Source: an uncultured bacterium (GTDB taxonomy: Bacteria; Pseudomonadota; Alphaproteobacteria; UBA8366; JADFVY01). Taken from it: a stretch of DNA of 64,000 nt. The notes under the pieces are model-generated. The model was not told the DNA's origin and searched no databases. It worked only from the letters and a program-made list of their open reading frames with translations. The DNA lies in NCBI GenBank assembly GCA_965603635.1, contig CBFDDT010000002.1, forward strand, positions 6,154 through 70,153, given 5' to 3'. Numbering within the stretch: position 1 is the stretch's first letter; the number at the start of each line of letters is the position of its first letter. The translations under genes were made by a program, and so were the position numbers. This document shows positions 10,761-24,403 of this stretch, one piece after another.

Positions 10761-12326
10761 CTATTTGCTGACGATCCTGAACACGCCCTTTTCCTGGTCG
10801 TCCATCTGGGCGGTGAGGCCGGTTTCCCAGGCGAGATACTGGCGGCAGGCTTCCAGATTGCCGGCGTGGCGGTCGTGGACGAAGAACAGGTAGTCGATGC
10901 AGTCTTCGTCTGGCGGATCGGCGGGCGTGGTGGTCAGGCGCAAGCCGGCGGCGCGCCAGTCGGCCTCGTTCCCGGCCAGGAAAGAAACATCGCGATGGCC
11001 GGCCGTGGCGAGGTCGGTGGCGGCGAGGTCGGCGACGAGGCGGTCGGCGGCCGTCAGGACGATGGGTTTGCCCACCGGCAGGTCAATGCGGTCGAGGCGT
11101 GGTCGGGTCGCCCAGCGCGCGCCCGCGACATGGCCGGCGCGATAGGCCATGGTGGGGTTCAGGTCCAGCAGGATCGTGGAACCATCCTCCAGCCCGGCGG
11201 ACAGGGATTCCGGGGAGATGCCGGGCAAGGATGAAGATAGATCGCCTTCCCCGCCCCCCGCCATGCCGGATGCATCCTCGTCCAGCACCACCGCATCGTG
11301 CCCCATCTGGCGCAGCCAGTGGGCGCAGATCGCGGCGCGGAGGTTGGTGTCGTCCATCAGCACCAGGCGCGCATTGCGCACCGCAACCCATTGGTCGGTC
11401 GCCTGCACAAGCTGGCCGCCGGGCGCATGAACCGCCCGCGGGTAATGGCCGCGCTCGAACTCCTCGGCCGTACGTACGTCCAGCAGGTACAGGCTGCGAT
11501 CCGCGTCGCCGCGCCATTGCCGCAGGGTGGCGTCGTCGATCACCGGGATGCCATGTCTGGCGATGAATTCGGTGGCACGTTCACGCGAGGCGGCCAGCTC
11601 GGCCACCCCGAAGTTTTCCGGGTAAAGCCGCGCCGCGCCGCGTTCCAGCTCGTAGCCCGCCAACTGCCAGCCCTGGGTGCCGTTCTCCAGCGCAAGGACG
11701 GGATTGCGGAACCCCAGATCGATCAGCGACTGCGCCCCCATGATGCTGCGCGTACGGCCGGCGCAATTGATAACGATAGGTGTCGTCTCGTTCGGAACCA
11801 GCATCGGCAGTCGGTGGCCCAGTTCGGCGTTGGGGCAGGCGATGCCGCCGGGAATGTTCATCTTGCGGTATTCGGCGACCGTGCGCCCATCCAGCAGCAC
11901 GAATTCCTCGCCGCGGTCCCGCATCGCCTGAAGCTGATCCGCCGTGATGCTCGGTGTATGGCGAGCATGTTCGACCATCTCGCCGAAGGCCTTGCTGGGC
12001 ACGTTCACGCCCTTGAACAGGGTGTGGCTGGCCGCCACCCAGCCCAGCGTGCCGCCCTCGACCGCCGCTATATCCGTATAACCAAGCGCCGCCAGCCGCG
12101 CGGCCGCCTTGTCCGCCACCCCGTCGCCGTCGTCCAGCAGGATAATCGGGACCGCCTTGCAGGGCAGCAGACGCGCCGCCTCGATCTCCAGCCGGCTGTA
12201 GGGCAACGGCACGGTGAAGAAGGGATGTCCCTCGCCATACTGGCCATGCTCGCGCACATCCAGGAATGCGATCTCGCCGCCAGCGGTCAGGCGCGCTTTG
12301 ACCTTTTCAGCCTTCAACCAGCGCAT
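10761..12326 (-). CDS. Multi-domain rhodanese sulfurtransferase (four rhodanese-like modules plus a C-terminal domain)
   Basis: Start ATG at 12326 (MRWLKAEKV), preceded by a GGAGAA Shine-Dalgarno sequence. Repeated LDVR/LLDGR/LLDVR/LLDLN module starts. One catalytic loop, NCAGRTRS (CxxxxR[ST]). Confidence 0.8.
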   Translation of the reverse strand: MRWLKAEKVKARLTAGGEIAFLDVREHGQYGEGHPFFTVPLPYSRLEIEAARLLPCKAVPIILLDDGDGVADKAAARLAALGYTDIAAVEGGTLGWVAASHTLFKGVNVPSKAFGEMVEHARHTPSITADQLQAMRDRGEEFVLLDGRTVAEYRKMNIPGGIACPNAELGHRLPMLVPNETTPIVINCAGRTRSIMGAQSLIDLGFRNPVLALENGTQGWQLAGYELERGAARLYPENFGVAELAASRERATEFIARHGIPVIDDATLRQWRGDADRSLYLLDVRTAEEFERGHYPRAVHAPGGQLVQATDQWVAVRNARLVLMDDTNLRAAICAHWLRQMGHDAVVLDEDASGMAGGGEGDLSSSLPGISPESLSAGLEDGSTILLDLNPTMAYRAGHVAGARWATRPRLDRIDLPVGKPIVLTAADRLVADLAATDLATAGHRDVSFLAGNEADWRAAGLRLTTTPADPPDEDCIDYLFFVHDRHAGNLEACRQYLAWETGLTAQMDDQEKGVFRIVSK

Positions 12327-12360
12327 AATTCTCCAAACTCGCCAAATAGTTTCCAGAACT

Positions 12361-13074
12361 TCACGGCGGGCCGCCAAACCGACCCAGCAACGGTGTCTCG
12401 CCCTGACGCGCCATCAGGATTTCGCCCCCCATCATCCGATAATGGCGGAGAATGTTTTGCAGGGGCTCCTCGTAGACCTGCGACCGGTAACTGTAGATCA
12501 GCCGCTCTTTTTCCGCCGGTTCCGCGCCGCGAAGCAACCTGAACTCGCATACTTCGCCCGCCAACGGCCCCTTGAGTTCGCCGGGCCGAAACACATCGGC
12601 CCCATAGGGCTGATCAAGATAAAACAGCACGGGAATGCCGCTGTCGGCAAGATTCAGACCGATCCCGGCCAGAAGAATATGATCGGGATGCTGTCCCGCC
12701 CCGGCCGGAAACAGTGCGACATCATACGGGTGCGCGGCGATACGGCGTCGGACGATTTCCAGGACGGTTTCGGCGAACGGATCCCGGAACATCCGCCGCA
12801 GCCGCGCCAGCAAGCCTTTATGCCTCAATATGACGTCCGGCAAATCTTCCCAGTCCAGCTTGTCCACAAGCTGGCCCAGCGCCTTCTTTTCCTCGGATTT
12901 TCGATGCGCCGTCACCTCTTCGACGCTGCCGGCGTCCCATATCCAGAAGTTCGTCCGGGTGAACATATTGACGATATGGACCGGCCCGAGACTTCCCCGC
13001 AACAGGCTGCCGCCCAGTGAATAGCCCGCATCGTCGCAGTGCGGCGAAAACAGAATACGGCGCGCTTCGGTCAT
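12361..13074 (-). CDS. PIG-L/LmbE-family N-acetylglucosaminyl deacetylase-like protein
   Basis: ILFSPHCDDAGYSLGG resembles the (A/P)H(P/A)DD metal motif, and a downstream HPDH motif (GAGQHPDHILL) is present. Overlaps the GT2 gene by 4 nt. Confidence 0.7.
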   Translation of the reverse strand: MTEARRILFSPHCDDAGYSLGGSLLRGSLGPVHIVNMFTRTNFWIWDAGSVEEVTAHRKSEEKKALGQLVDKLDWEDLPDVILRHKGLLARLRRMFRDPFAETVLEIVRRRIAAHPYDVALFPAGAGQHPDHILLAGIGLNLADSGIPVLFYLDQPYGADVFRPGELKGPLAGEVCEFRLLRGAEPAEKERLIYSYRSQVYEEPLQNILRHYRMMGGEILMARQGETPLLGRFGGPP

Positions 13075-13970
13075 GGCCCGCGCGGGGGCTCGCCGCCCCC
13101 CCAGGGGGCCTGTTCGGCAACCTTGGTCAGCCAGAATCGCTCAAGAATTCGAGCTATTCTTCGGCTTGTTCTGAGATACCCGTGGCGGGGCGCATAATGT
13201 TCGGCGAAGCAGACAAAAGCGTCCCGGTCGAACCTGTCCATGGCGAAGGGAAGCGCTTCAATCTTTTGCCGCGCCAGGACAGCGCTGTTCCCATACTCCC
13301 GCGACCTTGCCCGGCGGGCGGTTCGATCACTTTGTGTCCTGACCAGGGACGTCACTTTCGGCACGAACAGAAAGTTGCCACGCGTCGAATAGCGGCACCA
13401 TAACTCCCAATCCTCGAAAGCGTTCAGGTCCGGGTCGAAACCGCCCAACTGCTCGTAGCAGGACCGGTGAAACATTGCCGACTGGATAGTGATGAAATTC
13501 GAAACCCAAAGGGAAAACTTGTCAAAGGGCGGCAGGAAACGCATACGCTTGGCGGTCTCCCGGTATTTGAGCGGCTCAAGCGAAACCCAATCCGTGCGGA
13601 CGGTTTCCCAACCGGCATACGCCACCGCCTCGCGCCCCTCCAGCGCCTGCACCATGGTTTCCACATGGCATGGATACAACAGGTCATCATCGTCGAGGAA
13701 ATTGATATAATCGCCGCGCGCTCGCGCAAGCCCTTCATTGCCGGCCAAGGCCCGCCCGCGCTTGCGCCCCAGCGGCACATAGGTCAAACGCCCATCATCC
13801 ACCAATTGATCGAGATATGGCGCGCATTCCGCGGGCCCGTCTTCGACCAGAACAACCTCGATATTTCCGTAACTCTGGGCAAGAACCGACTTCACCGCCT
13901 CCAGCGCGAGCGCCGGCCGGTTACAAGTTCTGACCACCACCGAAACAAGGGGGGTGCTGATATTTCCCAT
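13071..13970 (-). CDS. Family 2 glycosyltransferase
   Basis: VSVVVRTCNRPALALEAVKSVLAQSYGNIEVVLVEDG and the DxD-like FLDDDD are a typical GT-A N-terminal half. Confidence 0.85.
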   Translation of the reverse strand: MGNISTPLVSVVVRTCNRPALALEAVKSVLAQSYGNIEVVLVEDGPAECAPYLDQLVDDGRLTYVPLGRKRGRALAGNEGLARARGDYINFLDDDDLLYPCHVETMVQALEGREAVAYAGWETVRTDWVSLEPLKYRETAKRMRFLPPFDKFSLWVSNFITIQSAMFHRSCYEQLGGFDPDLNAFEDWELWCRYSTRGNFLFVPKVTSLVRTQSDRTARRARSREYGNSAVLARQKIEALPFAMDRFDRDAFVCFAEHYAPRHGYLRTSRRIARILERFWLTKVAEQAPWGGGEPPRGP

Positions 13971-14068
13971 CGAATAAACAATTCAAAACCTACAGTACGG
14001 CTACCATTTAGCACGGTATTAACTGGTTATTCAATCACAGGGATGCGGCAAGTTGTTCACCCCGCAAT

Positions 14069-14593
14069 TCAATCCATCGGTGTGAGGTCGCGTTTGTAGC
14101 GCTGGTGGTTTTCCACGTAATGGTCGGCGATCTGTTTCAGGTTCGCTTGCTGTTCCCCGGTCAATTGTTTTACCACCCGGCCCGGCGAGCCCAGCACCAT
14201 GGAGCCGTCCGGGATTTCCTTGTTTTCAGCGATCATCGTGTTGGCGCCGATCAGGCAGCCTTTGCCGATCTTCGTGCCGTTCAGGATGATGCTGCCGATG
14301 CCGATCAGCGTGCCCTCGCCGACCGTGCAGCCATGCAGCATCACCATATGGCCGATGCTGACATTCTTCTCCAGCGTCAGCGGAAAACCCGGGTCGGCAT
14401 GCAGCACGCTGCCGTCCTGTACGTTCACGTTTTCGCCGATGGTAATGGTTTCGGAATCGCCGCGCACCACGCAGTTCCACCAGATGCTGGCGTTCTTTTT
14501 CAGACGTACGTCGCCGATCACCACGGCGTTGGGCGCAATCCAGTAATCGTCGCCCTCGGTCTGTACGCTCACGTCACCCAAAGCGTATTTCAT
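14069..14593 (-). CDS. Gamma-carbonic-anhydrase-like hexapeptide-repeat protein (CaiE/PaaY/YrdA family)
   Basis: The true start ATG at 14593 ([11 protein letters not shown]) removes the false extension of the track ORF to 14737. Left-handed beta-helix repeats and the His triad context ([19 protein letters not shown]). Confidence 0.85.
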
Positions 14594-14594
14594 G

Positions 14595-15383
14595 TTAGCT
14601 GCCCGTGAATTCAGGTTTGCGTTTTTCCAGGAAGGCGCGGCGGCCTTCGAGGTAATCCTGGCTCTTGAAGCAGGCGTCCACCATGGCGTCGCAGCGCGCC
14701 ATGTCGCGCTCGCCCGCGTCCTTGCCGAGTTCGCCAACCGCCTTCTTCAGCGCCAGAATGGTCAGCGGCGCGTTGGTGGTGATGCGCTCGGCATAGTCCG
14801 CGACATAGGCGTCCAACGCGTCCACTGGCACCACCCGGTTGACCAGCCCCATCTCCTTCGCCTCGGCCGCATCGAACAGGCGGGCGGTGAAGAAAATTTC
14901 CTTGGTGAAGGAGGGGCCAACGATATCGGACAGGCGTTTGACATATTTCGCCTGATAGCCGAGGCCGAGTTTGGCGGCGGGTACCCCGAATTTCGAGCCT
15001 TCGTCGCAGATGCGCATATCGCAGCAGGCCGCCACCGCGACGCCGCCGCCAACGCAATAGCCGCTGATTTTGGCGATGGTCGGCTTGGGAAATTCCTGTA
15101 GCCTGGTATAAACCTCGCCGGTCACCCGGCCATATTCCGCGACCGCCTCTTCCGTCGCGCGCTCGCTTTCGAACTTGGAGATGTCGGCGCCGGACACGAA
15201 GGCCTTGCCACCCGCGCCCGACAGCACCACCAGGCGCACCGCCGGGTCATTTTCATAGTCGCCAAGCAGTTCCGCCACGCGCTGCCACATATCCAGCGAC
15301 ACGGCGTTGCGCTTATCCGGGTTGTTGAAGACGATATGGCCGATGCCGTTTTCGATATGGCCAAGAATCTTGTCGGAACTCAT
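14595..15383 (-). CDS. Enoyl-CoA hydratase/isomerase (crotonase) family protein
   Basis: 262 aa with [11 protein letters not shown] and [17 protein letters not shown] (oxyanion hole). Ends 1 nt before the hexapeptide gene's start. Confidence 0.9.
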
Positions 15384-15442
15384 GGGTGGTTCATCCTTGG
15401 AATGGGTTTGTTCGAAACAGTTAAGGTGCGGCGGGCCGGCGG

Positions 15443-16633
15443 TCAGACAACCCCCGCCTCGCGGAAAGCGGCGATCTCGCCGGCATTGTAGCCCAGCTCG
15501 CTCAGCACTTCATCGCTATGTTCGCCGCAGGTCGGCGGCGGGGCGGAGATTTTACTGGGGGTGCGGCTCATCACGATGGGCTGGCCGACCAGTTCGGTCG
15601 GGCCGCGCTCGGTGGAATTCACCGGCTGGGCCATGCCGAGATGCTGAACTTGAGGGTCTGCGAAGACCTTGTCGATCGTGTTGATCTCGCCGCAGGGTAC
15701 GCCAGCCTCGTTGAACAGATCGATCCAGTGTTGGGCTGGCTTTCCACGCAGCGCTTCGTTGATCGTGTCGCCCAGCGCATCGCGGTTATCGGACCGGACG
15801 GGCGGGGTGGCGTAGTCGGGATGGTCGGCCAGTTCGGGTTTGCCCAGCGCCTCGCAGAAGCGCCGCCATATGACTTGGCCCGCCACCGCCAGATTGATGT
15901 AGCCGTCGGCGGCCTCGAACACGCCGGTGGGGATGCTGGTCGGGTGGTTGTTGCCGGCCTGGACCGGCGTCTCCCGGTCCATCAGCCAGCGGGCGGCCTG
16001 AAAATCCAGCATGAATACCTGCGCCTGCAGCAGCGAGGTCTGTATCCATTGCCCCTCGCCCGAGGCCTCGCGCTCCAGAAGTGCGATCATCACGCCCTGG
16101 GCGCAGAACATGCCGGCGCAGAGGTCGGCGATGGGGATGCCGACCCGCATCGGCCCGCGCCCCGGTTCGCCGGTGATCGACATCAGCCCGCCCATGCCCT
16201 GGGCGATCTGGTCGAAGCCGGGGCGGTCACGTAAGGGGCCGTCCTGACCAAACCCGGAGATGCTGGCATAAACCAGGCGCGGGTTGATCGCCTTCAGACT
16301 TTCGTAGTCTATGCCGAGGCGGGTCTTGACGTCCGGGCGGAAGTTTTCGACCAGCACATCGGCTGTCTCTACCAGCTTTTTCAGGATCGCTATGCCTTCG
16401 GGAGTCTTGAGATTGAGCGAAAGGCTGCGCTTGTTGCGGTGCAGGTTCTGGAAATCCGGCCCGCCGCGCGGCCCGCCCAGTTGACCCTTGTCCTGGGACG
16501 CGGGTAATTCGACCCTGATGACATCGGCGCCCCAGTCGGCGAGCTGGCGCACCGCCGTGGGCCCGGACCGCACCCGGGTCAGGTCCAGCACGGTAAATCG
16601 GCTCAGCGCCTTGCTTGCGGGTTGGATGGTCAT
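15443..16633 (-). CDS. Family III CoA-transferase (CaiB/BaiF type)
   Basis: Start ATG at 16633 (MTIQPASKALSRFTVLDLTRVRSGPTAVRQLADWGADVI). The rest is a typical CoA_transf_3 sequence. Confidence 0.9.
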   Translation of the reverse strand: MTIQPASKALSRFTVLDLTRVRSGPTAVRQLADWGADVIRVELPASQDKGQLGGPRGGPDFQNLHRNKRSLSLNLKTPEGIAILKKLVETADVLVENFRPDVKTRLGIDYESLKAINPRLVYASISGFGQDGPLRDRPGFDQIAQGMGGLMSITGEPGRGPMRVGIPIADLCAGMFCAQGVMIALLEREASGEGQWIQTSLLQAQVFMLDFQAARWLMDRETPVQAGNNHPTSIPTGVFEAADGYINLAVAGQVIWRRFCEALGKPELADHPDYATPPVRSDNRDALGDTINEALRGKPAQHWIDLFNEAGVPCGEINTIDKVFADPQVQHLGMAQPVNSTERGPTELVGQPIVMSRTPSKISAPPPTCGEHSDEVLSELGYNAGEIAAFREAGVV

Positions 16634-16702
16634 GCGGTCCCTCGGCTGTATGGATGACAAAGCGCCCTGACTATACAAGCAGAGTTGGCGAATTGACAAC
16701 TG

Positions 16703-16731
16703 TTGACAGTTTACATTTTAGCCTTGATAGT
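16703..16731 (+). promoter_or_regulatory. Candidate sigma70-type promoter for the gntR gene, next to an imperfect palindrome (possible operator)
   Basis: TTGACA (16703-16708), a 17-nt spacer, then GATAGT (16726-16731). A second TTGACA lies at 16693-16698. The palindrome CAAC-T-GTTG lies at 16697-16705, inside TGACAACTGTTGACA. Confidence 0.3.
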
Positions 16732-16787
16732 CGCTGCAGATCGTTGTTTGTATATCCAACACTCACTATCAGGAATGACTCGAACGG

Positions 16788-17507
16788 ATGCCCTTGGACG
16801 ACCAGAAACCGTTTCACGCCAGCAATGTCCAGACACTGACCGTGCTGGTGCAGCGCGAGATCGAGCGCCGCATACTGACCGGCGAACTGCCGGCGGGCGA
16901 ACGCCTGTCGGAAAGCGCGCTGGCCGTGAACATGGGGGTCAGTCGCGGCCCGGTGCGCGAGGCAATGCGCGGCCTGCAGCAGGCGGGCTTGGTCGATATC
17001 GTCGCCAACAAGGGCGTTGTGGTACGCAAGATCGGTTATGACGAGGCGGTGGATCTGTACGATCTGCGTGGCTCGCTATTCGGCTTCATATGCGAAACCA
17101 TGGCACGGCGCCGGACCGACGAGCAGTGCGCGATATTGAAGGACAAGCTGGACAGCATGGCGGCGGCAATCCAGGCCGACGACAAGGAGACCTATTTCCG
17201 CGTCAACCTTGAATTCCATGCCGCGATTGTCGAATTCTGCGGCAACATCAGGGCCCGCGCGGTTTACGAGGGCATCGCCAAGGAGATGCACCTGTTCCGC
17301 CGCCGCGGCCTGTCGCTGATCGAGAATATGGAAGCCTCGATGCATGAGCATGAGGCGATCGCCGCGGCGATTATCGCCGGACGCGCGGAAACCGCGCGCA
17401 AGGCGGGCGTCAGGCATCTGCTCAACGGGCGGGACCGGTTTCTGGCCACGCTCGACCCGGACTCTTTCGCGAGCGGGTCCGAAAGGCGGCCGGCCGCCGC
17501 GGAATAA
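16788..17507 (+). CDS. GntR-family (FadR/FCD subfamily) transcriptional regulator
   Basis: 239 aa with a winged HTH (LPAGERLSESALAVNMGVSRGPVREAMRGLQQAGLV) and an FCD ligand domain. Confidence 0.9.
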   Translation: MPLDDQKPFHASNVQTLTVLVQREIERRILTGELPAGERLSESALAVNMGVSRGPVREAMRGLQQAGLVDIVANKGVVVRKIGYDEAVDLYDLRGSLFGFICETMARRRTDEQCAILKDKLDSMAAAIQADDKETYFRVNLEFHAAIVEFCGNIRARAVYEGIAKEMHLFRRRGLSLIENMEASMHEHEAIAAAIIAGRAETARKAGVRHLLNGRDRFLATLDPDSFASGSERRPAAAE

Positions 17508-17599
17508 CTTGATTCGGACACCGGCCATCCAGCTCGGCCGGCGTCATCAAACCGCCCGACCGTTGTGAAACAGCGGCGGGCACAGCCAGGGAGGAAATT

Positions 17600-18598
17600 A
17601 TGGCTAAAGACTTCAAGACTGGTATTTCCCGTCGTCCGTTTCTGATCGGCGCGGGCGCGGGCGTTGGCACACTGGCCCTTGGCGGGTTCGGGGCGCTGGC
17701 GGCCGAGGGCGATTTCCCGTCCGAGACCATCAATGTGGTGACCCATGCCGGCCCCGGCGGGGGCACCGACATCACAACCCGCATGATGATGCTGCGCGCC
17801 CGCCGTGTATTCAAACAGGACATGGTGGTGGTCAGCAAGCGCGGAGGCAGTGGCTCGGCGGCGCTTCAATACGTCAACGGGCAGGAGCGCGACGGATACA
17901 CTATCATGACGATCACCCAGTCGCACATCTTCCAGATTCTGCAGAAGAAGGTGCCGGTCAAGATCGAGGATATGGTGGGCCTGGCCCGCGCCACGGACGA
18001 CCCACAGATCGTCGTGGTCAACGGCAATAGCCCGATCAAGACGGCGGACGACCTGATTGCGGCCTCGAAGAAGGCCAATGGCGGCCTGAAATGGGGCACC
18101 ACCTTCGTCGGCGGCGCCGACCATGTGGCCATTCACCTGTTCTGCAAGGCGGCAAAGGGCATCGAATACACCATCGTCCCATTCAAGGGCGGCGGCGACA
18201 TCGTGACCAACCTTGTCGGCGGCAATGTCGACGTGGCGCTGCTGAACTACGCCGAGGGCGAATCGCAGTTCGCGACCGGCGAGTTGCGGGCTGTCTGCTC
18301 GCTGTCGCGCAACAAGATCGAGTCGCTGGGCGGCGCCCCCACGGCGCGCGAAGTCGGCATCGACAATATCGCCTCGACGGTGCGCGGTTTCGCCTGCCTG
18401 AGCGGGACTCCCGAGGATCGCGTCAAGGTCTTGTCCGAAGGACTGGTCAAGGCGATGAACCATTCGGTCTACCAAGGCTATCTGTCGAATGGCGGCATGC
18501 CTGCCGACAGCATAATCGGGCAAGAGGAATGGACGGCCGAAATCCGTCACATTCATGACAGCAGCGTTGGCGCGCTGACCGATCTGGGCCTGCTTTAG
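17600..18598 (+). CDS. tctC: Tripartite tricarboxylate transporter substrate-binding protein (TctC/Bug family)
   Basis: 332 aa with a Tat-like signal (SRRPFLIGAGAGVGTLALG). Bug-family blocks are present. Followed by tctB and tctA. Confidence 0.9.
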   Translation: MAKDFKTGISRRPFLIGAGAGVGTLALGGFGALAAEGDFPSETINVVTHAGPGGGTDITTRMMMLRARRVFKQDMVVVSKRGGSGSAALQYVNGQERDGYTIMTITQSHIFQILQKKVPVKIEDMVGLARATDDPQIVVVNGNSPIKTADDLIAASKKANGGLKWGTTFVGGADHVAIHLFCKAAKGIEYTIVPFKGGGDIVTNLVGGNVDVALLNYAEGESQFATGELRAVCSLSRNKIESLGGAPTAREVGIDNIASTVRGFACLSGTPEDRVKVLSEGLVKAMNHSVYQGYLSNGGMPADSIIGQEEWTAEIRHIHDSSVGALTDLGLL

Positions 18599-18622
18599 GC
18601 CGATCAAGCCACAGAGACTGAT

Positions 18623-19126
18623 ATGTCCGAAAACCCCCTGCGGGGCGGACGGGCGGCGGGCGATATGCCCGCCGCCCGCATCCCGCGCGACGCCATTGCC
18701 GGGGCAGGCGTCCTGCTGTTCTGTTTCGCCGCTTACCTGGTGACGCTCACATTCAAGGAAGCGCCCCCCGCGCTAGCCCAAAACGTACAACCGGCAACCT
18801 TTCCGCGGCTGGTGCTCGGCGTCATGACGGTCCTGGCGACGGTCATCATCGTCATGTCGTTCCGGCTGCCGGACAAGCAGTCCAAGCCGATCCACTTGAT
18901 GGTCTGGCCCTCGGCGGCGGTCATGATCGGCTTCGTGATCGCCTTCGACTTTCTGGGTATACTGCCGGCGATGATGCTGCTCTGCTTCGGCCTGCCGATA
19001 TTATGGGGTGAGCGTCGGCTTTTCCTGATCATCCCCTACGCCATCATCTTCCCGCTGGCCATATACGGGCTGTTTGCCATTGTGCTGAGGGTCCATTTCG
19101 AGCCCAGCCCCCTTGTTTTCTGGTAA
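18623..19126 (+). CDS. tctB: Tripartite tricarboxylate transporter small membrane subunit (TctB family)
   Basis: 167 aa, four predicted TM helices, positioned between tctC and tctA. Confidence 0.75.
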   Translation: MSENPLRGGRAAGDMPAARIPRDAIAGAGVLLFCFAAYLVTLTFKEAPPALAQNVQPATFPRLVLGVMTVLATVIIVMSFRLPDKQSKPIHLMVWPSAAVMIGFVIAFDFLGILPAMMLLCFGLPILWGERRLFLIIPYAIIFPLAIYGLFAIVLRVHFEPSPLVFW

Positions 19127-19144
19127 GGCCACCACGAGGTTCCG

Positions 19145-20656
19145 ATGGATGTTTTCCTGACAACCGCCGCCATGTTTGCCGATCCCTACCTGATCGGCGT
19201 CATTCTGATCGGCACAATCGGCGGGGTGCTGGTCGGCGCCATGCCGGGGCTTAGCTCCACCATGGCGACGGCGCTATTGCTGCCATTTACGCTGTCGATG
19301 GAGCCAATCCCGGCGATCTCGTTGTTGAGCGCGCTCTATTGCGCCGGTACCTTCGGCGGCTCCATCACGGCGATCCTGGTGAACGCCCCGGGCGCGCCGC
19401 CGGCCGCGGCGACGGCCTTCGACGGCTATCCGCTAGCGCAACAGGGCCGCGCCGGGCTGGCGCTGGGCATCGCCACCGTCAGCAGCACTATCGGCGGCAT
19501 TTTCAGCATCATCGTGCTGATTGTTGCCGCGCCGATGCTGTCCCGGGTCGCCTACGATTTCGGCCCCCCCGAATATTTCGCCCTGGCCCTGTTCGGCCTG
19601 TCGATGCTGGCCTCGATCAGCGGCGAATCGGCCTTCAAGAACCTGTTGGGAGGCGCGTTCGGCGTGCTGCTTGCCACCGTCGGGATGGACTTCACCACCG
19701 CCGTGGACCGCTTCACCTTCGGTTTCTGGGAACTCAGCGAGGGCATTCATTTCATCCCGGTCATGATCGGGCTGTTCGCGGGCTCGGAGTTTCTGACCCA
19801 GGCCGGCAATCTGGACCGCAAGACGGTCCGCGCGGCGATCGATGCGGTCAAGCTGCCCAGTTGGATTGATTTCCGCGGCACGCTGAGTACGGTCGCCCGC
19901 TCCTGCGGCATCGGCGCCTTCATCGGGCTGCTGCCCGCCGAGGGCGGCACCGTCGCGGCCATGATCGGCTACAACGAGGCCAAGCGCTGGGCCAAGGACA
20001 AATCGATGTTCGGCAAGGGCGATCTCCGCGGCATCGCCGGGCCGGAAACAGCCAATAACGCGGCCACGGGCGCGGCCATGGTGCCGACCCTGGCGCTGGG
20101 CATACCGGGCAGCGCGACGACGGCCGTTATCCTGGGAGCGCTGCTGATGCATGGGCTCAGGCCGGGGCCGCATCTGTTCAATGAAACGCCAACCCTGCTT
20201 TATGGCATCTTCATTGCCATGCTGTTGGCCAATCTGATGTTCATGGGGCTGGGTCTGCTAGGCGCCAAGCTGTTCGCGCGGGTTACCCTGATCCCGACGC
20301 GTTTCCTCTGGCCCACCGTATTCATCCTGGCCTGCATCGGCTCTTACGCGCTGGAACAGGCCATCATGGATGTCTGGATCATGGTGCTTGCCGGGCTGGG
20401 CGGATTTGTCCTGAAACGCTATGGGTTTTCGGCGGCGCCGATCATCATGGGGCTGATCCTGGGCGAACTGGTGGAATCCAGCCTGAAGCAGTCGCTGATC
20501 ATGTTCGATCACAGTTGGCTGGGTTTCCTGGAGCGGCCGATCGTCGTCACGTTCATCCTGCTGACCGCCATAAGCTTCGCCATGCCCGTGATCGCGGGCT
20601 ACCGCGATCGACTGCGCGCGAAAATGCCGCCATCCGCGGATATCCCCGGCGACTGA
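19145..20656 (+). CDS. tctA: Tripartite tricarboxylate transporter large permease (TctA family)
   Basis: 503 aa polytopic protein with TctA blocks (GVLVGAMPGLSSTMATALLLPFT; GTVAAMIGYNEAKRW). Confidence 0.9.
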   Translation: MDVFLTTAAMFADPYLIGVILIGTIGGVLVGAMPGLSSTMATALLLPFTLSMEPIPAISLLSALYCAGTFGGSITAILVNAPGAPPAAATAFDGYPLAQQGRAGLALGIATVSSTIGGIFSIIVLIVAAPMLSRVAYDFGPPEYFALALFGLSMLASISGESAFKNLLGGAFGVLLATVGMDFTTAVDRFTFGFWELSEGIHFIPVMIGLFAGSEFLTQAGNLDRKTVRAAIDAVKLPSWIDFRGTLSTVARSCGIGAFIGLLPAEGGTVAAMIGYNEAKRWAKDKSMFGKGDLRGIAGPETANNAATGAAMVPTLALGIPGSATTAVILGALLMHGLRPGPHLFNETPTLLYGIFIAMLLANLMFMGLGLLGAKLFARVTLIPTRFLWPTVFILACIGSYALEQAIMDVWIMVLAGLGGFVLKRYGFSAAPIIMGLILGELVESSLKQSLIMFDHSWLGFLERPIVVTFILLTAISFAMPVIAGYRDRLRAKMPPSADIPGD

Positions 20657-20675
20657 CAGGAACCAGGAATTCGAT

Positions 20676-21116
20676 ATGAGCGAATCTTTTAATACCCCCG
20701 ATATAGGCGCTTTCGGGCAGATGCTGGGTTTTCGTGTCGTGGAATGGCGCGACGGCCATGTGCGTATGGAAATGGACATCGGGCCGGAACATCTGAACCG
20801 CAGCGGCGTGTTGCATGGGGGCGTCATTTCGTCTCTGCTGGATACGGCCTGCGGCTATTCCGGCACATGGTGCACGAAGCAAGGCAATGTGCGCTGGGCC
20901 ATCACGGTGAATCTGACCACGAATTTTACCGGCCAGGCGAAAAGCGGCAGGATCACGACGATTGGCCGCAAGCGGGGAGGCGGGCGCAAGATATTTTTCG
21001 CCAGCGCAGAGGTGCAGGACGAGAACGGCCAGGTCCTGGGGTTTGGTGATAGCGTCCAGCGCTATCGCACCGGCTGCGAGGATCCGGAAGGGATTCCCTA
21101 CAAGCCGCCGGTCTGA
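20676..21116 (+). CDS. PaaI-family hotdog-fold thioesterase
   Basis: 146 aa. GFRVVEWRDGHVRMEMDIGPEHLNRSGVLHGGVISSLLDTACG is the typical PaaI/4HBT signature. Confidence 0.8.
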   Translation: MSESFNTPDIGAFGQMLGFRVVEWRDGHVRMEMDIGPEHLNRSGVLHGGVISSLLDTACGYSGTWCTKQGNVRWAITVNLTTNFTGQAKSGRITTIGRKRGGGRKIFFASAEVQDENGQVLGFGDSVQRYRTGCEDPEGIPYKPPV

Positions 21117-21124
21117 GCGCGACC

Positions 21125-22237
21125 ATGAAAATCGACCACATAAGGGCAACCGTCCACGCTGCCGGAAGCAGGATTCCGCTACTCGATCGTGCGGTTGAAG
21201 ATTATCGGGATGGTCCGCCGCGACCATTCGTGGTCTGCCGCGTTACCACCGATGACGGACGGATCGGATACGGTTTCACTGGCCGGTTCCTGGCCCGCCA
21301 GGTCTCTCGGACACTGGAGGAAGATGTGCTGCCGGCCGTGCACGGGATGGACGCTGCGGATCCGGAGGCGGTTCAGGCATCATTGCTGGCCCGGCTGAAC
21401 CCGCGCAATATGACCGGTGTGGCGATGAGCGCGGCCTCGGCGCTGGACATCGCGCTGTGGGACCTGAAGGGCCAGGCCGAGGATTGCAGTATCGCCAACC
21501 TGTTGGGCGGCGTGCGGCAATCCGTGCCGGTGTACCTTACTTTCGGCATGCCGCAATATGACCGGGAAGGATTGGCCGAGGCGGCGCGGCGAGCGCTGGG
21601 TAACGGTTACCGGTTGCTGAAAATGGTGGTGGCGGTCGATCCGGGCGGCTGGCGGGAGGATACACGCCGGATCCGCGCGGTGGTTGATGCGGTTGGGGAC
21701 AAGGCCGAGATTATCATCGATGCCAATGAGGGATTCGAGGAAGAGGAAGCCCGGCTTCTGGCGTGTGAAGTCAGGGATTGCCCGATAGCCTGGTTCGAGG
21801 AGCCCGTCCGCAGCAATGATCCCGCGGCGCTAGTCCGGCTGCGCAAGGTGGCGGGCATGCGAATCGGCGCCGGGCAGATGGAGGCGGACTCGCGGATTTT
21901 CGACATTTTGCTGGAACAGGGTGCGGTGGATGTGCTTCAGCCCAACGTGCTCTATTGTGGAGGCTTTACCAGGGCCGCGAGGATCGCCCGCCAGGCTGAC
22001 GCAATGTCGGTTCCGATAGCCAATGGCGCCGGGTGGCCGCTGGTAAATATGCATCTGATGGCCGGCGTCGCCAATGGCTGGCTGCTGGAACATCACGTTG
22101 CGCAGTCGGGCATCGAAGACGCGCTGTTCCACGATCCGCCATATCCTGTTGACGGGAGGCTCGCAATACCGGAAAAACCGGGACTTGGGTTGTGTATCGA
22201 ACAGGCTGGCCTGGACGCGACCAGGCTGGACGATTGA
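21125..22237 (+). CDS. Enolase-superfamily enzyme (mandelate racemase/muconate lactonizing family)
   Basis: 370 aa with an N-terminal capping domain and barrel metal-ligand contexts (IIIDANEGF, WFEEP). Confidence 0.85.
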   Translation: MKIDHIRATVHAAGSRIPLLDRAVEDYRDGPPRPFVVCRVTTDDGRIGYGFTGRFLARQVSRTLEEDVLPAVHGMDAADPEAVQASLLARLNPRNMTGVAMSAASALDIALWDLKGQAEDCSIANLLGGVRQSVPVYLTFGMPQYDREGLAEAARRALGNGYRLLKMVVAVDPGGWREDTRRIRAVVDAVGDKAEIIIDANEGFEEEEARLLACEVRDCPIAWFEEPVRSNDPAALVRLRKVAGMRIGAGQMEADSRIFDILLEQGAVDVLQPNVLYCGGFTRAARIARQADAMSVPIANGAGWPLVNMHLMAGVANGWLLEHHVAQSGIEDALFHDPPYPVDGRLAIPEKPGLGLCIEQAGLDATRLDD

Positions 22238-22264
22238 ACGAAGCAGAATGAGGTAACGAAATCC

Positions 22265-23773
22265 GTGTCGGACAATCTATACGAACTTTTTGAGCGCTGT
22301 TTTCCAAAGGACCGCAAGACGGTCTTCATGGAAACGCTGACCGGTGACCGCTTTACCTATGCGGACCTGGAGTCGATGAGCGCGCTTTATGCCGGCATGC
22401 TGCTCGAGTTGGGCGTTGAGCCGGGCGACCGGGTCGCCGTGCAGGTGGAAAAGAGCCCCGAGGCGATCATCCTGTATCTCGCGACGCTGCGCGCGGGCGC
22501 TGCCTTTCTGCCGCTTAACACCGCCTATACCGGGCCCGAGATGGAATATTTCCTGGCCGATTCAGAGCCGTGCGTCGTGGTCTGCCGGCCCCGGGACGAG
22601 GCGGTGATCAAGCCGCTGGCCGAGGCCGCGGGCTGCGCCCATACGCTGACCCTGGACACCGACGGTGGCGGCAGTTTTTCCGAGCGGGCCTCCGGCGCCC
22701 ATGCGATCGAGGGTGCTGTCCCACGCGGACAGAAAGACCTGGCGGCGATACTTTATACCTCCGGCACCACGGGTCGATCCAAGGGCGCCATGCTGACAGT
22801 GGAGAATTTGTGGTCGAACGCCAATACCCTGTGCGAGGCTTGGGGTTTCACGAAAAATGACGTGCTGTTGCATGCGCTGCCTATCTTTCACGCGCATGGG
22901 CTGTTCGTCGCCATCGACTGCGTGCTGGTCAGCGGGTCGCGGATGGTATTCATGCCGAAGTTCGACGCGGCCGAGATCATGGCCGCCCTGCCGCGATGCA
23001 GCGTGATGATGGGTGTGCCGACCTTTTATACGAGACTACTGGCTCATCCAGACTTCGAGGCCGAGTCCTTCAAAGGGCGACGGCTGTTCATTTCCGGTTC
23101 GGCGCCGCTGCTGGCCGAAACCTGGAATGAGTTCCACCAACGCACCGGTCACAGAATTCTGGAACGCTACGGCATGACGGAGACCGTCATGAACTCGTCG
23201 AACTTGCTGGAGGGCGAGGAAGGACGCATACCGGGCAGTATCGGCAAGCCGTTGCCGGGCATCGAACTACGGGTCGTCGGCGAGGATGGCGAGGAACTGC
23301 CGGCGGGTGAGACCGGAATGCTGGAAGTGCGCGGCCCCAATGTGTTTAAGGGTTACTGGCGCATGCCGGATAAAACCAACGCGGAATTCCGGCCGGATGG
23401 GTTCTTCATCACCGGCGACATGGCGCGCCATGACGAGAACGGGTTCCTGTATCTGGTCGGCCGCTCGAAAGACCTGATCATTACCGGCGGATTCAACGTC
23501 TATCCGAAGGAAATCGAGGAAGAGCTGGACGCCATGGACGGTATTGTCGAATCGGCCGTGGTCGGCGTGCCCGACACGGATTTCGGCGAGCGCGTGATCG
23601 CGGCGGTAAAGCCGGCGGACGAACCGCCCACCGAAGACGAGATTATCGCCAGGCTGAAGGAACGGCTGGCTGGCTACAAGGTGCCCAAGCAGGTCCATTT
23701 CGTCGACGAACTGCCCCGCAACGTCATGGGCAAGGTCCAGAAAAATATCCTGCGCGAACGTTACGGATCGTAA
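22265..23773 (+). CDS. Malonyl-CoA/methylmalonyl-CoA synthetase-like acyl-CoA ligase (MatB type)
   Basis: GTG start. Long blocks match what I recall of rhizobial MatB: GDRVAVQVEKSPEAIILYLATLRAGAAFLPLNTAY, ILYTSGTTGRSKGAMLT, LFISGSAPLLAET, GPNVFKGYWRMPDKT, LPRNVMGKVQKNILR. Confidence 0.85.
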   Translation: MSDNLYELFERCFPKDRKTVFMETLTGDRFTYADLESMSALYAGMLLELGVEPGDRVAVQVEKSPEAIILYLATLRAGAAFLPLNTAYTGPEMEYFLADSEPCVVVCRPRDEAVIKPLAEAAGCAHTLTLDTDGGGSFSERASGAHAIEGAVPRGQKDLAAILYTSGTTGRSKGAMLTVENLWSNANTLCEAWGFTKNDVLLHALPIFHAHGLFVAIDCVLVSGSRMVFMPKFDAAEIMAALPRCSVMMGVPTFYTRLLAHPDFEAESFKGRRLFISGSAPLLAETWNEFHQRTGHRILERYGMTETVMNSSNLLEGEEGRIPGSIGKPLPGIELRVVGEDGEELPAGETGMLEVRGPNVFKGYWRMPDKTNAEFRPDGFFITGDMARHDENGFLYLVGRSKDLIITGGFNVYPKEIEEELDAMDGIVESAVVGVPDTDFGERVIAAVKPADEPPTEDEIIARLKERLAGYKVPKQVHFVDELPRNVMGKVQKNILRERYGS

Positions 23774-23797
23774 CCGGCGCGCGACGCGGCCGCCAGC

Positions 23798-24001
23798 TTA
23801 GTGAACCAGTTCGCCCTGCTGTTCTATGATTGCCTGGCTAACGCCGGTCCAGGTGTTCTCCGCGCACACTTTCAGTGCCTTTTCAACACCGAGATAATGC
23901 ACCAGCGTGCTGGCATACTGCTGGTCGCGCTTGGCTTTGCGGTTGGATGCGGTGTTAGCGGGAAGTGTGGCTGTATTCATGGTTTCTACCCCGTTTTGCA
24001 A
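23798..24001 (-). CDS. Hypothetical small protein downstream of the ArsR regulator
   Basis: 67-aa ORF (alternative start MNTATL at 23980), on the same strand 69 nt after the ArsR stop. I recognise no family, and coding status is uncertain. Confidence 0.3.
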   Translation of the reverse strand: MQNGVETMNTATLPANTASNRKAKRDQQYASTLVHYLGVEKALKVCAENTWTGVSQAIIEQQGELVH

Positions 24002-24070
24002 TTAACGCCCGTTAACGGGCCCTGTACGGGGGAAATCTGCAAACAGCGTGCCAGTCTGTTTAAGAAAAGG

Positions 24071-24403
24071 TTACTCTCCGACAGCTCTCGCCTCGGGCGC
24101 GCAGCAATATATGCCGTGCAGGGTTTGCATAATGGCCTGCGCCTCGCCGCCGGCAAGCGAGTAATAAATTGTTTGTGAGGCGCGGCGCGTCTTGACCAGG
24201 CCGTCACGGCGCAGACGCGCCAGATGCTGGGACAGGGCCGACTGGCTGAGCCCGACGAGCTTTTCCATTTCGCCCACCGCCTTCTCGCCATTGGCGAGGT
24301 AGCAGAGGATCATTAGTCTTTTTTCGTTGCTCATGGCCTTGAGCAACTCGCTCGCCTTCTGAGCATTCGCCCTTAGATCGTCAACTCGCATATCCATGAT
24401 CAT
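24071..24403 (-). CDS. ArsR/SmtB-family transcriptional regulator, BigR/SqrR-like Cys pair
   Basis: HTH region (EKAVGEMEKLVGLSQSALSQHLARLRRDGLVKTRRASQTIYYSL). No ELCVCDL metal site. Cys34 (MILCYL) and Cys100/101 (IYCC) are 66-67 residues apart. Confidence 0.9.
   Translation of the reverse strand: MIMDMRVDDLRANAQKASELLKAMSNEKRLMILCYLANGEKAVGEMEKLVGLSQSALSQHLARLRRDGLVKTRRASQTIYYSLAGGEAQAIMQTLHGIYCCAPEARAVGE

Follow-up and report, generated by a model that had tools for sequence, protein, structure and literature searches.

A possible GntR-controlled divergon for a tartrate-related hydroxy-dicarboxylate in an uncultured alphaproteobacterium, and the separate distribution of its enzyme modules

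This paper describes a ten-gene island in a 64,000-nucleotide stretch of DNA (the window) from an uncultured alphaproteobacterium (contig CBFDDT010000002.1 of assembly GCA_965603635.1). The island consists of two divergent arms, one encoding a family III coenzyme A (CoA)-transferase, a crotonase-fold protein and a hexapeptide protein, the other a GntR-family regulator, a tripartite tricarboxylate transporter (TTT; TctCBA), a thioesterase, an enolase-superfamily enzyme and a MatB-type ligase. An original prediction had regarded these genes as a rewired relative of the carnitine (cai) operon of Escherichia coli, adapted to an anionic substrate. Comparison with related loci in other genomes suggests instead that the two arms may constitute one regulatory unit for the uptake and catabolism of a tartrate-related acid.

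Gene content and shared operator

The ten genes were agreed on by the open reading frame (ORF) listing, gene calling by third-position GC content, Pfam and NCBIfam, and the latter two confirmed every family named in the original prediction. The minus-strand arm encodes the family III CoA-transferase (15443-16633; 396 amino acids; PF02515), the crotonase-fold protein, which lacks both glutamates of enoyl-CoA hydratases (14595-15383; PF00378 and NCBIfam PRK06127), and the hexapeptide protein, which resembles gamma-carbonic anhydrases (gamma-CA) of the YrdA/PaaY/CaiE type (14069-14593; 174 amino acids; Pfam Hexapep). Two start sites in this arm were revised. The hexapeptide gene, listed as an ORF at 14069-14737, most likely starts at the ATG at 14593, 1 nt past the crotonase stop codon, and the CoA-transferase gene, listed at 15443-16699, was assigned the ATG at 16633 (MTIQPASK...), so that the divergent region measures 154 bp; the TTG listed at 16699 falls inside the operator. 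The plus-strand arm starts with the GntR-family regulator and its FCD effector domain (16788-17507; PF00392 and PF07729), followed by the adjacent genes tctC (17600-18598; PF03401, 99 bits), tctB (18623-19126; PF07331, 53.5 bits) and tctA (19145-20656; PF01970, 485 bits), which all score above the cut-offs for a TTT system. Downstream lie the genes for a hotdog-fold thioesterase of the PaaI/THEM2 type (20676-21116; PF03061 and TIGR00369), an enolase-superfamily enzyme of the mandelate racemase (MR) subgroup (21125-22237; PF13378 and PF02746), and an AMP-ligase of the MatB type, i.e., a malonyl/methylmalonyl-CoA synthetase (22265-23773; NCBIfam PRK07514). The successive gaps from tctC to matB measure 24, 18, 19, 8 and 27 nt, in agreement with the range of 8-27 nt noted in the original prediction, and the gap between gntR and tctC measures 92 nt. 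Within the plus arm, a consensus scan detected neither promoter-like nor terminator-like sites in the spaces between genes. An inverted repeat rich in GC (CCGCCCG ... CGGCGGG) is found at 17540-17580, inside the gntR-tctC gap, and may act as a partial terminator or attenuator that sets the ratio of regulator to structural-gene expression.

The divergent region contains the perfect palindrome AACTGTTGACAGTT at 16698-16711 (half-sites AACTGT and ACAGTT, spaced by TG), a candidate GntR-type operator that occurs once in the window, against 0 matches expected by shuffling, and once in the whole 4.23-Mb genome. No further copy was found elsewhere in the genome, including the regions near both of its tartrate dehydrogenase genes, and allowing one mismatch yielded a single additional site, as compared to four for the reversed control. 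The palindrome overlaps the -35 hexamers of two putative sigma-70-like promoters arranged back to back (16670-16731), one on the plus strand (TTGACA-17-GATAGT, 16703-16731) and one on the minus strand (TTGTCA-18-TATAGT, 16699-16670), which each match the consensus at 10 of 12 positions and were the only such sites in a scan of positions 13900 to 24400. Because this unique palindrome overlaps both -35 boxes, one GntR dimer is predicted to repress both arms as well as its own gene. The regulator combines the winged-helix GntR and FCD domains with a palindromic GT...AC candidate operator at its own promoter, and it is probably an autoregulated repressor of both arms. These observations support the earlier proposal that the two arms form one unit, here under one predicted switch. 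The operator itself was not part of the original prediction, nor were the link to tartrate genes and the multi-rhodanese gene that are presented below.

The same operator accompanies orthologues of the regulator elsewhere. More than 586 loci related to the enolase-superfamily gene and more than 525 related to the crotonase gene were retrieved; neighbourhood counts refer to the best 80 loci of each scan, related genomes included, such that they are not independent samples, and gene calls in the fetched loci (designated L) are heuristic, based on a third-position-GC score. GntR orthologues with 38-49% identity, equipped with the same operator, lie either beside members of the enolase family (32 of 67 loci) or beside a CoA-transferase/crotonase pair. 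At 0-1 mismatch, the operator was detected in the divergent regions between the GntR and CoA-transferase genes of Elioraea, Falsiroseomonas and Kiloniellales loci (L098, L119, L139, L140, L147, L148 and L150), beside GntR, TctC or enolase-family genes of Acidobacteria (L040, L051, L054, L060, L062 and L066), and in Chelativorans (L027). The actinobacterial locus L090 has it at one mismatch, with two-mismatch variants at the same place in L074 and L075. Litchfieldella rifensis (L030), a member of the Halomonadaceae, contains three perfect copies that bracket the genes for a tartrate dehydrogenase, two PrpD proteins, TctCBA and an enolase-family enzyme. In the promoter regions of related loci, the motif thus spans four phyla.

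The enzymes of both arms and their relatives

The CoA-transferase (409 bits on PF02515) has succinate-hydroxymethylglutarate CoA-transferase as its best solved relative (9br6, 257 bits; 10uh, 255 bits), and it is nearest to transferases for C4-C6 dicarboxylates, including those for succinate-hydroxymethylglutarate, succinate-glutarate, mesaconate and oxalate. Its catalytic Asp aligns with that of CaiB (ADLCAG versus ADYFSG). The crotonase matches PF00378 over its full length (189 bits) and exceeds the cut-off of NCBIfam PRK06127 (370 versus 291 bits). Alignment with CaiD and ScpB revealed that both hydratase glutamates are replaced (GGGVAVA and VPAAKLG), a pattern that extends to all orthologues: in 68 of 68, the position of Glu144 of the rat enzyme is occupied by Gly, Ala or Asn and that of Glu164 by Ala, the oxyanion-hole motif AFVSGADI is conserved, and Tyr143 is present, in alignment with Tyr140 of the E. 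coli methylmalonyl-CoA decarboxylase. The protein combines the hallmarks of the crotonase fold with the loss of the glutamate pair and cannot, therefore, be a hydratase of the CaiD type; it is predicted to be a non-hydratase enzyme of the decarboxylase, lyase or hydrolase type. Of the two activities originally suggested, the hydratase is thereby contradicted, and the alternative of a (methyl)malonyl-CoA-type decarboxylase gains support from the invariant loss of the glutamates and the aligned tyrosine. On the methylmalonyl-CoA decarboxylase model PRK11423 the protein scores 165 bits, below the cut-off of 257, and Ala takes the position of His66. The hexapeptide protein scores 60 bits on Hexapep, 179 bits on the NCBIfam gamma-CA model (cut-off 250), 105 bits on PaaY and 80 bits on CaiE, and its segments LHAD and IGHMVMLHG represent the three-His pattern.

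The neighbourhood analysis that the original prediction had proposed for the CoA-transferase and the enolase-superfamily enzyme placed crotonase genes beside the former and tartrate genes beside relatives of the latter. CoA-transferase and crotonase genes are adjacent in 67 of 70 loci, with 58-69% identity, in Xanthobacteraceae, Rhodoplanes, Elioraea, Rhodovarius, Falsiroseomonas, Nisaea and others, and genes for the enolase, PaaI or MatB are almost never present in these alphaproteobacterial loci. The hexapeptide gene adjoins the crotonase gene only in the clade of the window and in L098. A divergent GntR orthologue (44-49% identity) is located upstream of the pair in Elioraea, Rhodovarius and Falsiroseomonas, and GntR-TctCBA genes are located upstream of it in L098, L148 and L150; L098 also carries the hexapeptide gene, and the genes after its tctA are unrelated. 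Downstream of the pair, Xanthobacteraceae have genes for an ATP-binding cassette transporter, an MmgE/PrpD protein, a short-chain dehydrogenase/reductase and an aldehyde dehydrogenase. The surroundings of the pair in Falsiroseomonas include an MmgE/PrpD protein, a FAD monooxygenase and an Amdase-family protein (L148:9885-12274; L159:12246-12986), and those in Elioraea include a PdxA-family dehydrogenase, an alpha/beta hydrolase and membrane proteins of the AbrB and TauE types (L147:4987-5979 and 13824-14573). In L148 and L159, the Amdase-family gene lies downstream of the pair; it matched no NCBIfam model and is a lead only. Genes of the MR/MLE family (named for mandelate racemase and muconate lactonizing enzyme) and TTT genes are reported to lie beside amd genes, i.e., those of arylmalonate decarboxylase (PMC4996985).

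The enolase-superfamily enzyme has the Asp/Glu/Glu metal-ligand barrel of the MR subgroup, with D199, E225 and E253 invariant in set A1, and it retains H310 at the seventh strand and E322. The subgroup's KxK motif and His-Asp dyad are lacking: the sequence reads K166-M-V168 where MR and the D-tartrate dehydratase TarD have KxK, such that the general-base Lys is replaced by Val, and Asn274 occupies the position of the dyad Asp (QPN versus QPD in 3bjs). The protein scores below every NCBIfam cut-off, and its best PDB match is 3bjs (132 bits). A two-base racemase mechanism is, by analogy, unlikely. If only the His side is present, proton abstraction would be expected at an (R)-configured alpha-carbon, and the enzyme could perform a syn-dehydration, as L-rhamnonate dehydratase does.

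Relatives of this enzyme are embedded in a consistent genomic context. Within six positions of the enolase-family gene, 67 loci outside the window's clade contain a second MR/MLE gene (38 loci), a GntR orthologue (32), TctA (30), a DctA-like carrier (29; 462 bits), an MmgE/PrpD protein (21), a multi-rhodanese protein (15), an alpha/beta hydrolase (15), and a tartrate dehydrogenase that exceeds the equivalog cut-off (8; 506 versus 470 bits). Against Bll6730 (2dw7), a characterised D-tartrate dehydratase, the second MR/MLE gene scores 502 bits. In actinobacteria these genes form a tight operon, GntR / enolase-DctA-TarD, for example in L074:10001-13680, with L053 and L030 as further cases among L020-L090. 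Members of the TarD-associated main family share 67-95% identity between Alphaproteobacteria, Halomonadaceae, Nocardia/Pseudonocardiaceae and Acidobacteria, which points to strong constraint combined with horizontal spread. The family is a candidate for a second tartrate dehydratase, with the opposite stereospecificity: since TarD is (2S)-specific, it is attractive to interpret the adjacent gene as encoding a dehydratase of L- or meso-tartrate that is specific for (2R).

The remaining plus-arm functions differ in how far they extend beyond the window. The ligase was correctly recognised as MatB-like; it scores 768 bits on the malonyl-CoA synthase model PRK07514 (cut-off 558), matches Rhodopseudomonas palustris MatB (4fuq) with 592 bits over residues 8-500, and contains the C-terminal GK motif. 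It is the only MatB of the genome, the next paralogue being 37% identical, and it adjoins the enolase gene only in the window's clade, with an N-terminal fragment in L011. The latter locus (L011:7512-12081; Rhodospirillales bin96, CP070634) represents a decayed plus arm in which TctB, TctA, PaaI and the enolase are intact, MatB is cut to approximately 70 N-terminal residues joined to a DUF2914 region, and TctC, GntR and the CoA-transferase/crotonase pair are missing. The thioesterase scores 63 bits on TIGR00369 (cut-off 36.6), matches PDB 1zki and THEM2, has the HGG...LLD motif with the family Asp, and adjoins the enolase gene only in the window's clade (cluster 19, 7 loci). In a quick tree of TctA with support values from the Shimodaira-Hasegawa-like approximate likelihood ratio test, a clade with support 100 unites the window's clade, the TctAs that accompany the CoA-transferase/crotonase pair only (L098, L148 and L150), and those that accompany the enolase family only (L069, L024, L032, L026, L050, L042, L034 and L030); other TctAs from the same loci fall outside it. 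No indication of the ligand came from the solved structures related to TctC and PaaI. The anionic nature of the substrate, part of the original prediction, is supported by the TTT system here and by the DctA-type or TTT transporters in relatives.

One divergon for a tartrate-related acid, and competing explanations

The island is a mosaic of units that are mostly found apart: module A, comprising the CoA-transferase and the glutamate-less crotonase; module B, comprising the enolase family; and the clade-specific addition of PaaI and MatB. The whole ten-gene arrangement is present in at least five metagenome-assembled genomes (MAGs) of one uncultured alphaproteobacterial clade (L009, L010, L012, L013 and L014), obtained from marine-sediment and cold-seep samples, and was found in this clade only. 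The MAGs that keep the arrangement encode island proteins 63-92% identical to those of the window. The flanking genes are syntenic as well, so that a conserved layout is by itself hardly informative about function. On comparative grounds, a substrate that the two modules share, or closely related substrates, are nevertheless preferred over chance juxtaposition, mainly because one set of regulator, operator and transporter serves either module elsewhere and both of them here.

On this basis the ten genes are interpreted, with a confidence that is evenly balanced, as one GntR-controlled divergon for the uptake and catabolism of a tartrate-related anionic hydroxy-dicarboxylate via CoA esters. Direct observations comprise the families of the genes, the patterns of residues, the operator as a unique site and the distribution of the modules; from these the substrate class, each reaction and the order of the steps are proposed. 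The GntR/FCD repressor would bind the single palindrome and thereby control gntR-tctCBA-paaI-enolase-matB and the CoA-transferase-crotonase-hexapeptide genes together, and TctCBA would import the acid. The enolase-superfamily enzyme, keeping only its His-side catalyst, would probably catalyse a Mg-dependent dehydration of the free acid that starts with abstraction of the alpha-proton, as in L-rhamnonate dehydratase. The family III CoA-transferase would load the dicarboxylate onto CoA, after which the crotonase would employ its oxyanion hole and Tyr143, most likely for decarboxylation of a malonyl-type ester, or else, probably, for a retro-aldol or hydrolytic step. The CoA ester produced could pass its CoA to the next substrate molecule, resulting in a self-reloading cycle such as that of formyl-CoA transferase with oxalyl-CoA decarboxylase or that of ScpC with ScpB, primed by MatB at the expense of ATP. 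Finally, the hotdog thioesterase and the PaaY/CaiE-like hexapeptide protein may rescue CoA from dead-end esters or handle CO2/bicarbonate. Chemistry by way of CoA esters, as originally proposed, is thus supported.

A bolder version of this proposal, which we consider rather unlikely, holds that two undescribed activities lie under one conserved switch and together make up a CoA-dependent branch of hydroxy-dicarboxylate catabolism. In this version the enolase-family enzyme could be an oxygen-insensitive dehydratase that acts on the (2R) centre of L- or meso-tartrate or a close analogue and complements the (2S)-specific TarD. The CoA-transferase and the glutamate-less crotonase could decarboxylate or cleave a tartrate-derived or substituted-malonate ester, primed by MatB in the marine-sediment clade.

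Several observations weigh against the assignment to a tartrate-related acid. Among 80 sampled genomes of the class, the crotonase is present in 14 and the enolase family in two, and both are present in one; an obligate co-occurrence was not found among these genomes. PaaI and MatB join the cluster only in the window's clade. The window-clade enolase is 47-51% identical to all TarD-associated family members, and this divergence implies that the tartrate inference may not be transferable to the enolase gene of the island, which may act on a related acid instead of tartrate itself. A TarD orthologue was not found in the window's genome (best match 31%), and the two tartrate dehydrogenases of that genome are encoded on other contigs, with no operator copy near them. 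Decarboxylation by the crotonase has the aligned tyrosine as its sole specific support, with the decarboxylase-model score below the cut-off. The paaI and enolase genes have a third-position GC content of 0.72 and 0.71, versus 0.77-0.84 for tctCBA and matB, compatible with a late and possibly incidental insertion. The enolase is, moreover, the least conserved island protein within the clade (66-91% versus 76-99% for its neighbours), which, together with its low third-position GC, fits relaxed constraint or an acquisition at a later stage. In favour of the divergon, though weakly, two marine-sediment RNA libraries yielded contigs, of which only bridging ones were used and uncovered bins and depth were left aside, that map to both arms and bridge gntR-tctC, paaI-enolase and enolase-matB; they come from strains of 90-99% similarity, not from this organism, and may contain DNA.

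Some of these points are shared by the explanation that survives best beside the divergon, according to which the mosaic is accidental: the minus arm and GntR-TctCBA would be self-contained, and paaI-enolase and a housekeeping matB would have been inserted or have come to lie downstream by chance, without a common substrate. The separate occurrence of the modules in most genomes, the clade-restricted adjacency of PaaI and MatB, the lower third-position GC of paaI and the enolase gene and the faster evolution of the enolase fit this explanation well, as do the MatB being the genome's only one and, in particular, L098, in which GntR-TctCBA and the CoA-transferase-crotonase-hexapeptide genes are followed by unrelated genes after tctA. 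It is contradicted by the 8-27 nt gaps and the lack of promoter- or terminator-like sites between genes past tctA, which make co-transcription of the plus arm likely, and by the maintenance of the arrangement across MAGs whose island proteins have diverged to 63-92% identity. Furthermore, the enolase family occurs elsewhere under the same GntR orthogroup, with the same operator and TctA orthogroup, and its recruitment behind TctCBA is therefore unlikely to have been random. An accidental mosaic is accordingly judged a possible but improbable origin of the island.

Use of malonate or methylmalonate is more doubtful. Here TTT-mediated import would be followed by formation of malonyl-CoA by MatB or the CoA-transferase, the glutamate-less crotonase would replace the decarboxylase MatA, and acetyl-CoA would be recycled as CoA donor. 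The MatB scores on the malonyl-CoA synthase model and against 4fuq agree with this, as do the crotonase without both glutamates, its tyrosine aligned with Tyr140 of methylmalonyl-CoA decarboxylase, and the failure to find MatA (PF05292) in the 99%-complete genome by a search that was positive in 23 of 81 class genomes. Known MatR regulators, moreover, are of the GntR type. Opposed to it are the presence of MatA in 9 of the 14 sampled crotonase genomes, i.e., no complementary distribution, the near absence of MatB beside the CoA-transferase/crotonase pair outside the window's clade, and the decarboxylase score of 165 versus 257 bits; in addition, it leaves the enolase without a role, as well as the genes for tartrate dehydratase and tartrate dehydrogenase in homologous regulons. 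Simple malonate, as a consequence, is weakened as a substrate. A substituted malonate, as considered in the original prediction, or tartronate is still to be reckoned with in view of MatB, the Amdase-family gene of L148 and L159 and the PdxA-family gene of Elioraea, none of which is decisive.

A true cai-type system adapted to an anion is very improbable; in it, a pair resembling CaiB and CaiD, helped by proteins like CaiE and CaiC, would dehydrate a beta-hydroxy acid in the form of its CoA ester. The island does contain family-level counterparts of CaiB, CaiC, CaiD and CaiE, and the two systems share a CoA-transferase cycle with an AMP-ligase as plausible primer, crotonase chemistry and a gamma-CA-like helper. 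The minus-arm order of transferase, crotonase and hexapeptide protein, which had suggested the comparison with CaiB-CaiD-CaiE, matches CaiB-(C)-D-E but is not a contiguous counterpart, as caiC sits between caiB and caiD in E. coli. Direct alignment with the E. coli cai operon and scpB, which were fetched for this purpose, gave identities of 26% to CaiB, 31% to CaiD, 28% to CaiE and 28% to CaiC, and the scores on the CaiB model PRK03525 (131 versus 413 bits) and the CaiE model PRK13627 (80 versus 305 bits) are far below the cut-offs, so that kinship with the cai operon does not hold. The contradiction extends to the catalytic residues, since CaiD keeps both glutamates (GGGFEL and LPEAKLG) at positions where the island crotonase has Ala (GGGVAV and VPAAKLG). 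The ligase of the island is a MatB and belongs to the opposite arm, a TTT system for anions accounts for uptake, the regulator is GntR/FCD instead of CaiF, and, as stated in the original prediction, CaiA and CaiT are missing, neither family being present among the ten genes or in the flanks. The island may work like cai in its CoA-transferase cycle and ligase primer, but it is not a member of the cai system.

A biosynthetic logic like that of menaquinone, in which the enolase would make an acid, the ligase would activate it, the glutamate-less crotonase would carry out a ring or C-C reaction of the Claisen type and the product would be released by the hotdog thioesterase, draws on the same four families as MenC, MenE, MenB and 1,4-dihydroxy-2-naphthoyl-CoA (DHNA-CoA) thioesterase, on the equal lack of both hydratase glutamates in MenB and on weak matches to MenB (148 bits) and DHNA-CoA hydrolase (E 3e-4), but it is scarcely credible, given that the proteins score far better elsewhere (MatB at 768 bits; MenB below its cut-off of 343; o-succinylbenzoate synthase models at E 1e-7 to 1e-12), that the cluster has an uptake system and a catabolic-type GntR switch, and that homologous regulons hold tartrate catabolic genes.

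Relation to characterised systems and adjacent genes

The divergon proposed here for a tartrate-related acid shares elements with several characterised systems. One of these is the D-tartrate dehydratase TarD of Bradyrhizobium (Bll6730; PDB 2dw6/2dw7), orthologues of which (502 bits) are encoded in operons with relatives of the island enolase, tartrate dehydrogenase and a carrier of the DctA-like or TTT kind; these operons are under the GntR orthogroup and operator also present in the island. Both enzymes belong to the MR subgroup and have the D/E/E metal ligands and the catalytic His. The island enolase is, however, not TarD: it is 22-26% identical to TarD-like proteins, has Val for the general-base Lys and Asn for the dyad Asp, did not retrieve 2dw6/2dw7 among PDB matches at E<=1e-20, and belongs to a genome in which TarD was not found. 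Known tartrate pathways, moreover, have no CoA-dependent step, in contrast to the route proposed for the island. L-rhamnonate dehydratase, another MR-subgroup enzyme, has no Lys as general base where the second barrel strand ends and depends on the seventh-strand His, as the island enolase would do. Some database homologues of the enolase family are automatically named after it, but the island protein scores 88 bits against a cut-off of 393, has Asn for the dyad Asp, and occurs in a context of dicarboxylates instead of 6-deoxy sugar acids.

For the crotonase, ScpB (YgfG) of E. coli and its mammalian counterpart ECHDC1 provide a non-hydratase crotonase fold with the tyrosine at position 140 and, in E. 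coli, a CoA-transferase partner, ScpC, that allows reloading. The identity to ScpB is 32%, ScpB keeps the first Glu where the island family has Gly, Ala or Asn, ScpC belongs to a different transferase family, and decarboxylase activity of the island protein is a prediction. The rhizobial matABC/MatR system resembles the island in its MatB-type ligase, which here exceeds the cut-off, its GntR-family regulator and its dicarboxylate carrier. It differs in that the window's genome lacks MatA by the search described above, the island carrier is of the TTT type, six further genes have no mat counterpart, and MatB is attached in the window's clade only. The literature searched contained no pathway with this gene set, in line with the original prediction that it could not be matched to a named pathway, and it likewise mentioned neither a tartrate epimerase nor a partner gene assigned to the enolase family, nor a tartryl-CoA or CoA-dependent tartrate route.

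As a class, GntR-switched organic-acid clusters with TTT uptake are ordinary, and the value of the island lies in the testable hypotheses that it provides for three large uncharacterised families that it ties together: the glutamate-less crotonase, present in 14 of the 80 alphaproteobacterial genomes sampled, the family III CoA-transferase that partners it, and the enolase family without the base Lys. The shared operator, regulator and transporter orthogroup define a testable substrate class of tartrate isomers and related hydroxy- or carboxy-substituted C3-C6 diacids, and the same families are present in the cultured Litchfieldella rifensis, Chelativorans xinjiangense, Nocardia vulneris, Rhodoplanes tepidamans and Falsiroseomonas. 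Among these, L. rifensis CECT 7698 combines the enolase family with a tartrate dehydrogenase, C. xinjiangense has, besides the enolase family, a TarD-type paralogue at a distance of 7.6 kb as well as a CoA-transferase, Falsiroseomonas sp. CW058 carries the CoA-transferase/crotonase pair together with GntR-TTT genes, and R. tepidamans carries the pair. If the interpretation is true, it would supply functions for genes that are often mis-annotated as 'enoyl-CoA hydratase' and 'mandelate racemase', and it might add a CoA-dependent route to tartrate-type acids.

Besides the ten genes, a four-domain rhodanese protein (10761-12377, minus strand; PF00581 four times) recurs beside both modules. Only its domain 2 keeps the active-site Cys (C205, in CAGRTRS; invariant in 18 of 18). 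The gene directly follows the hexapeptide gene in L009, L012, L013, L093, L094 and L096, and 15 distant alphaproteobacterial loci contain homologues with 39-53% identity no more than six genes from the enolase family, usually together with an alpha/beta hydrolase. The rhodanese is a probable associate of the minus arm, split from it in the window by two inserted genes. These encode a family 2 glycosyltransferase (GT2) and a PIG-L deacetylase (12361-13970, minus strand), are found between the hexapeptide and rhodanese genes only in the window, and have a third-position GC of 0.69-0.72, below that of their neighbours. They look like an insertion, and GT2-PIG-L-rhodanese is probably not an ancestral unit. 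A link to sulfur metabolism was considered in view of the rhodanese, the TauE gene near the pair in Elioraea and the downstream ArsR gene, and was set aside as an association only, the island containing no sulfur-specific enzyme.

Alphaproteobacterial island contigs are filed under MAGs labelled Akkermansiaceae and Flavobacteriales (L005, L009, L094 and L096), labels that probably reflect binning errors in public records. Downstream of matB, in the segment 23801-24403, a plus-strand ORF (23801-24178) that lacks a Pfam match and shows hardly any third-position GC signal is probably not a gene; it overlaps the minus-strand ORF at 24071-24403, which encodes the ArsR-type regulator (HTH_5, E 8e-15).

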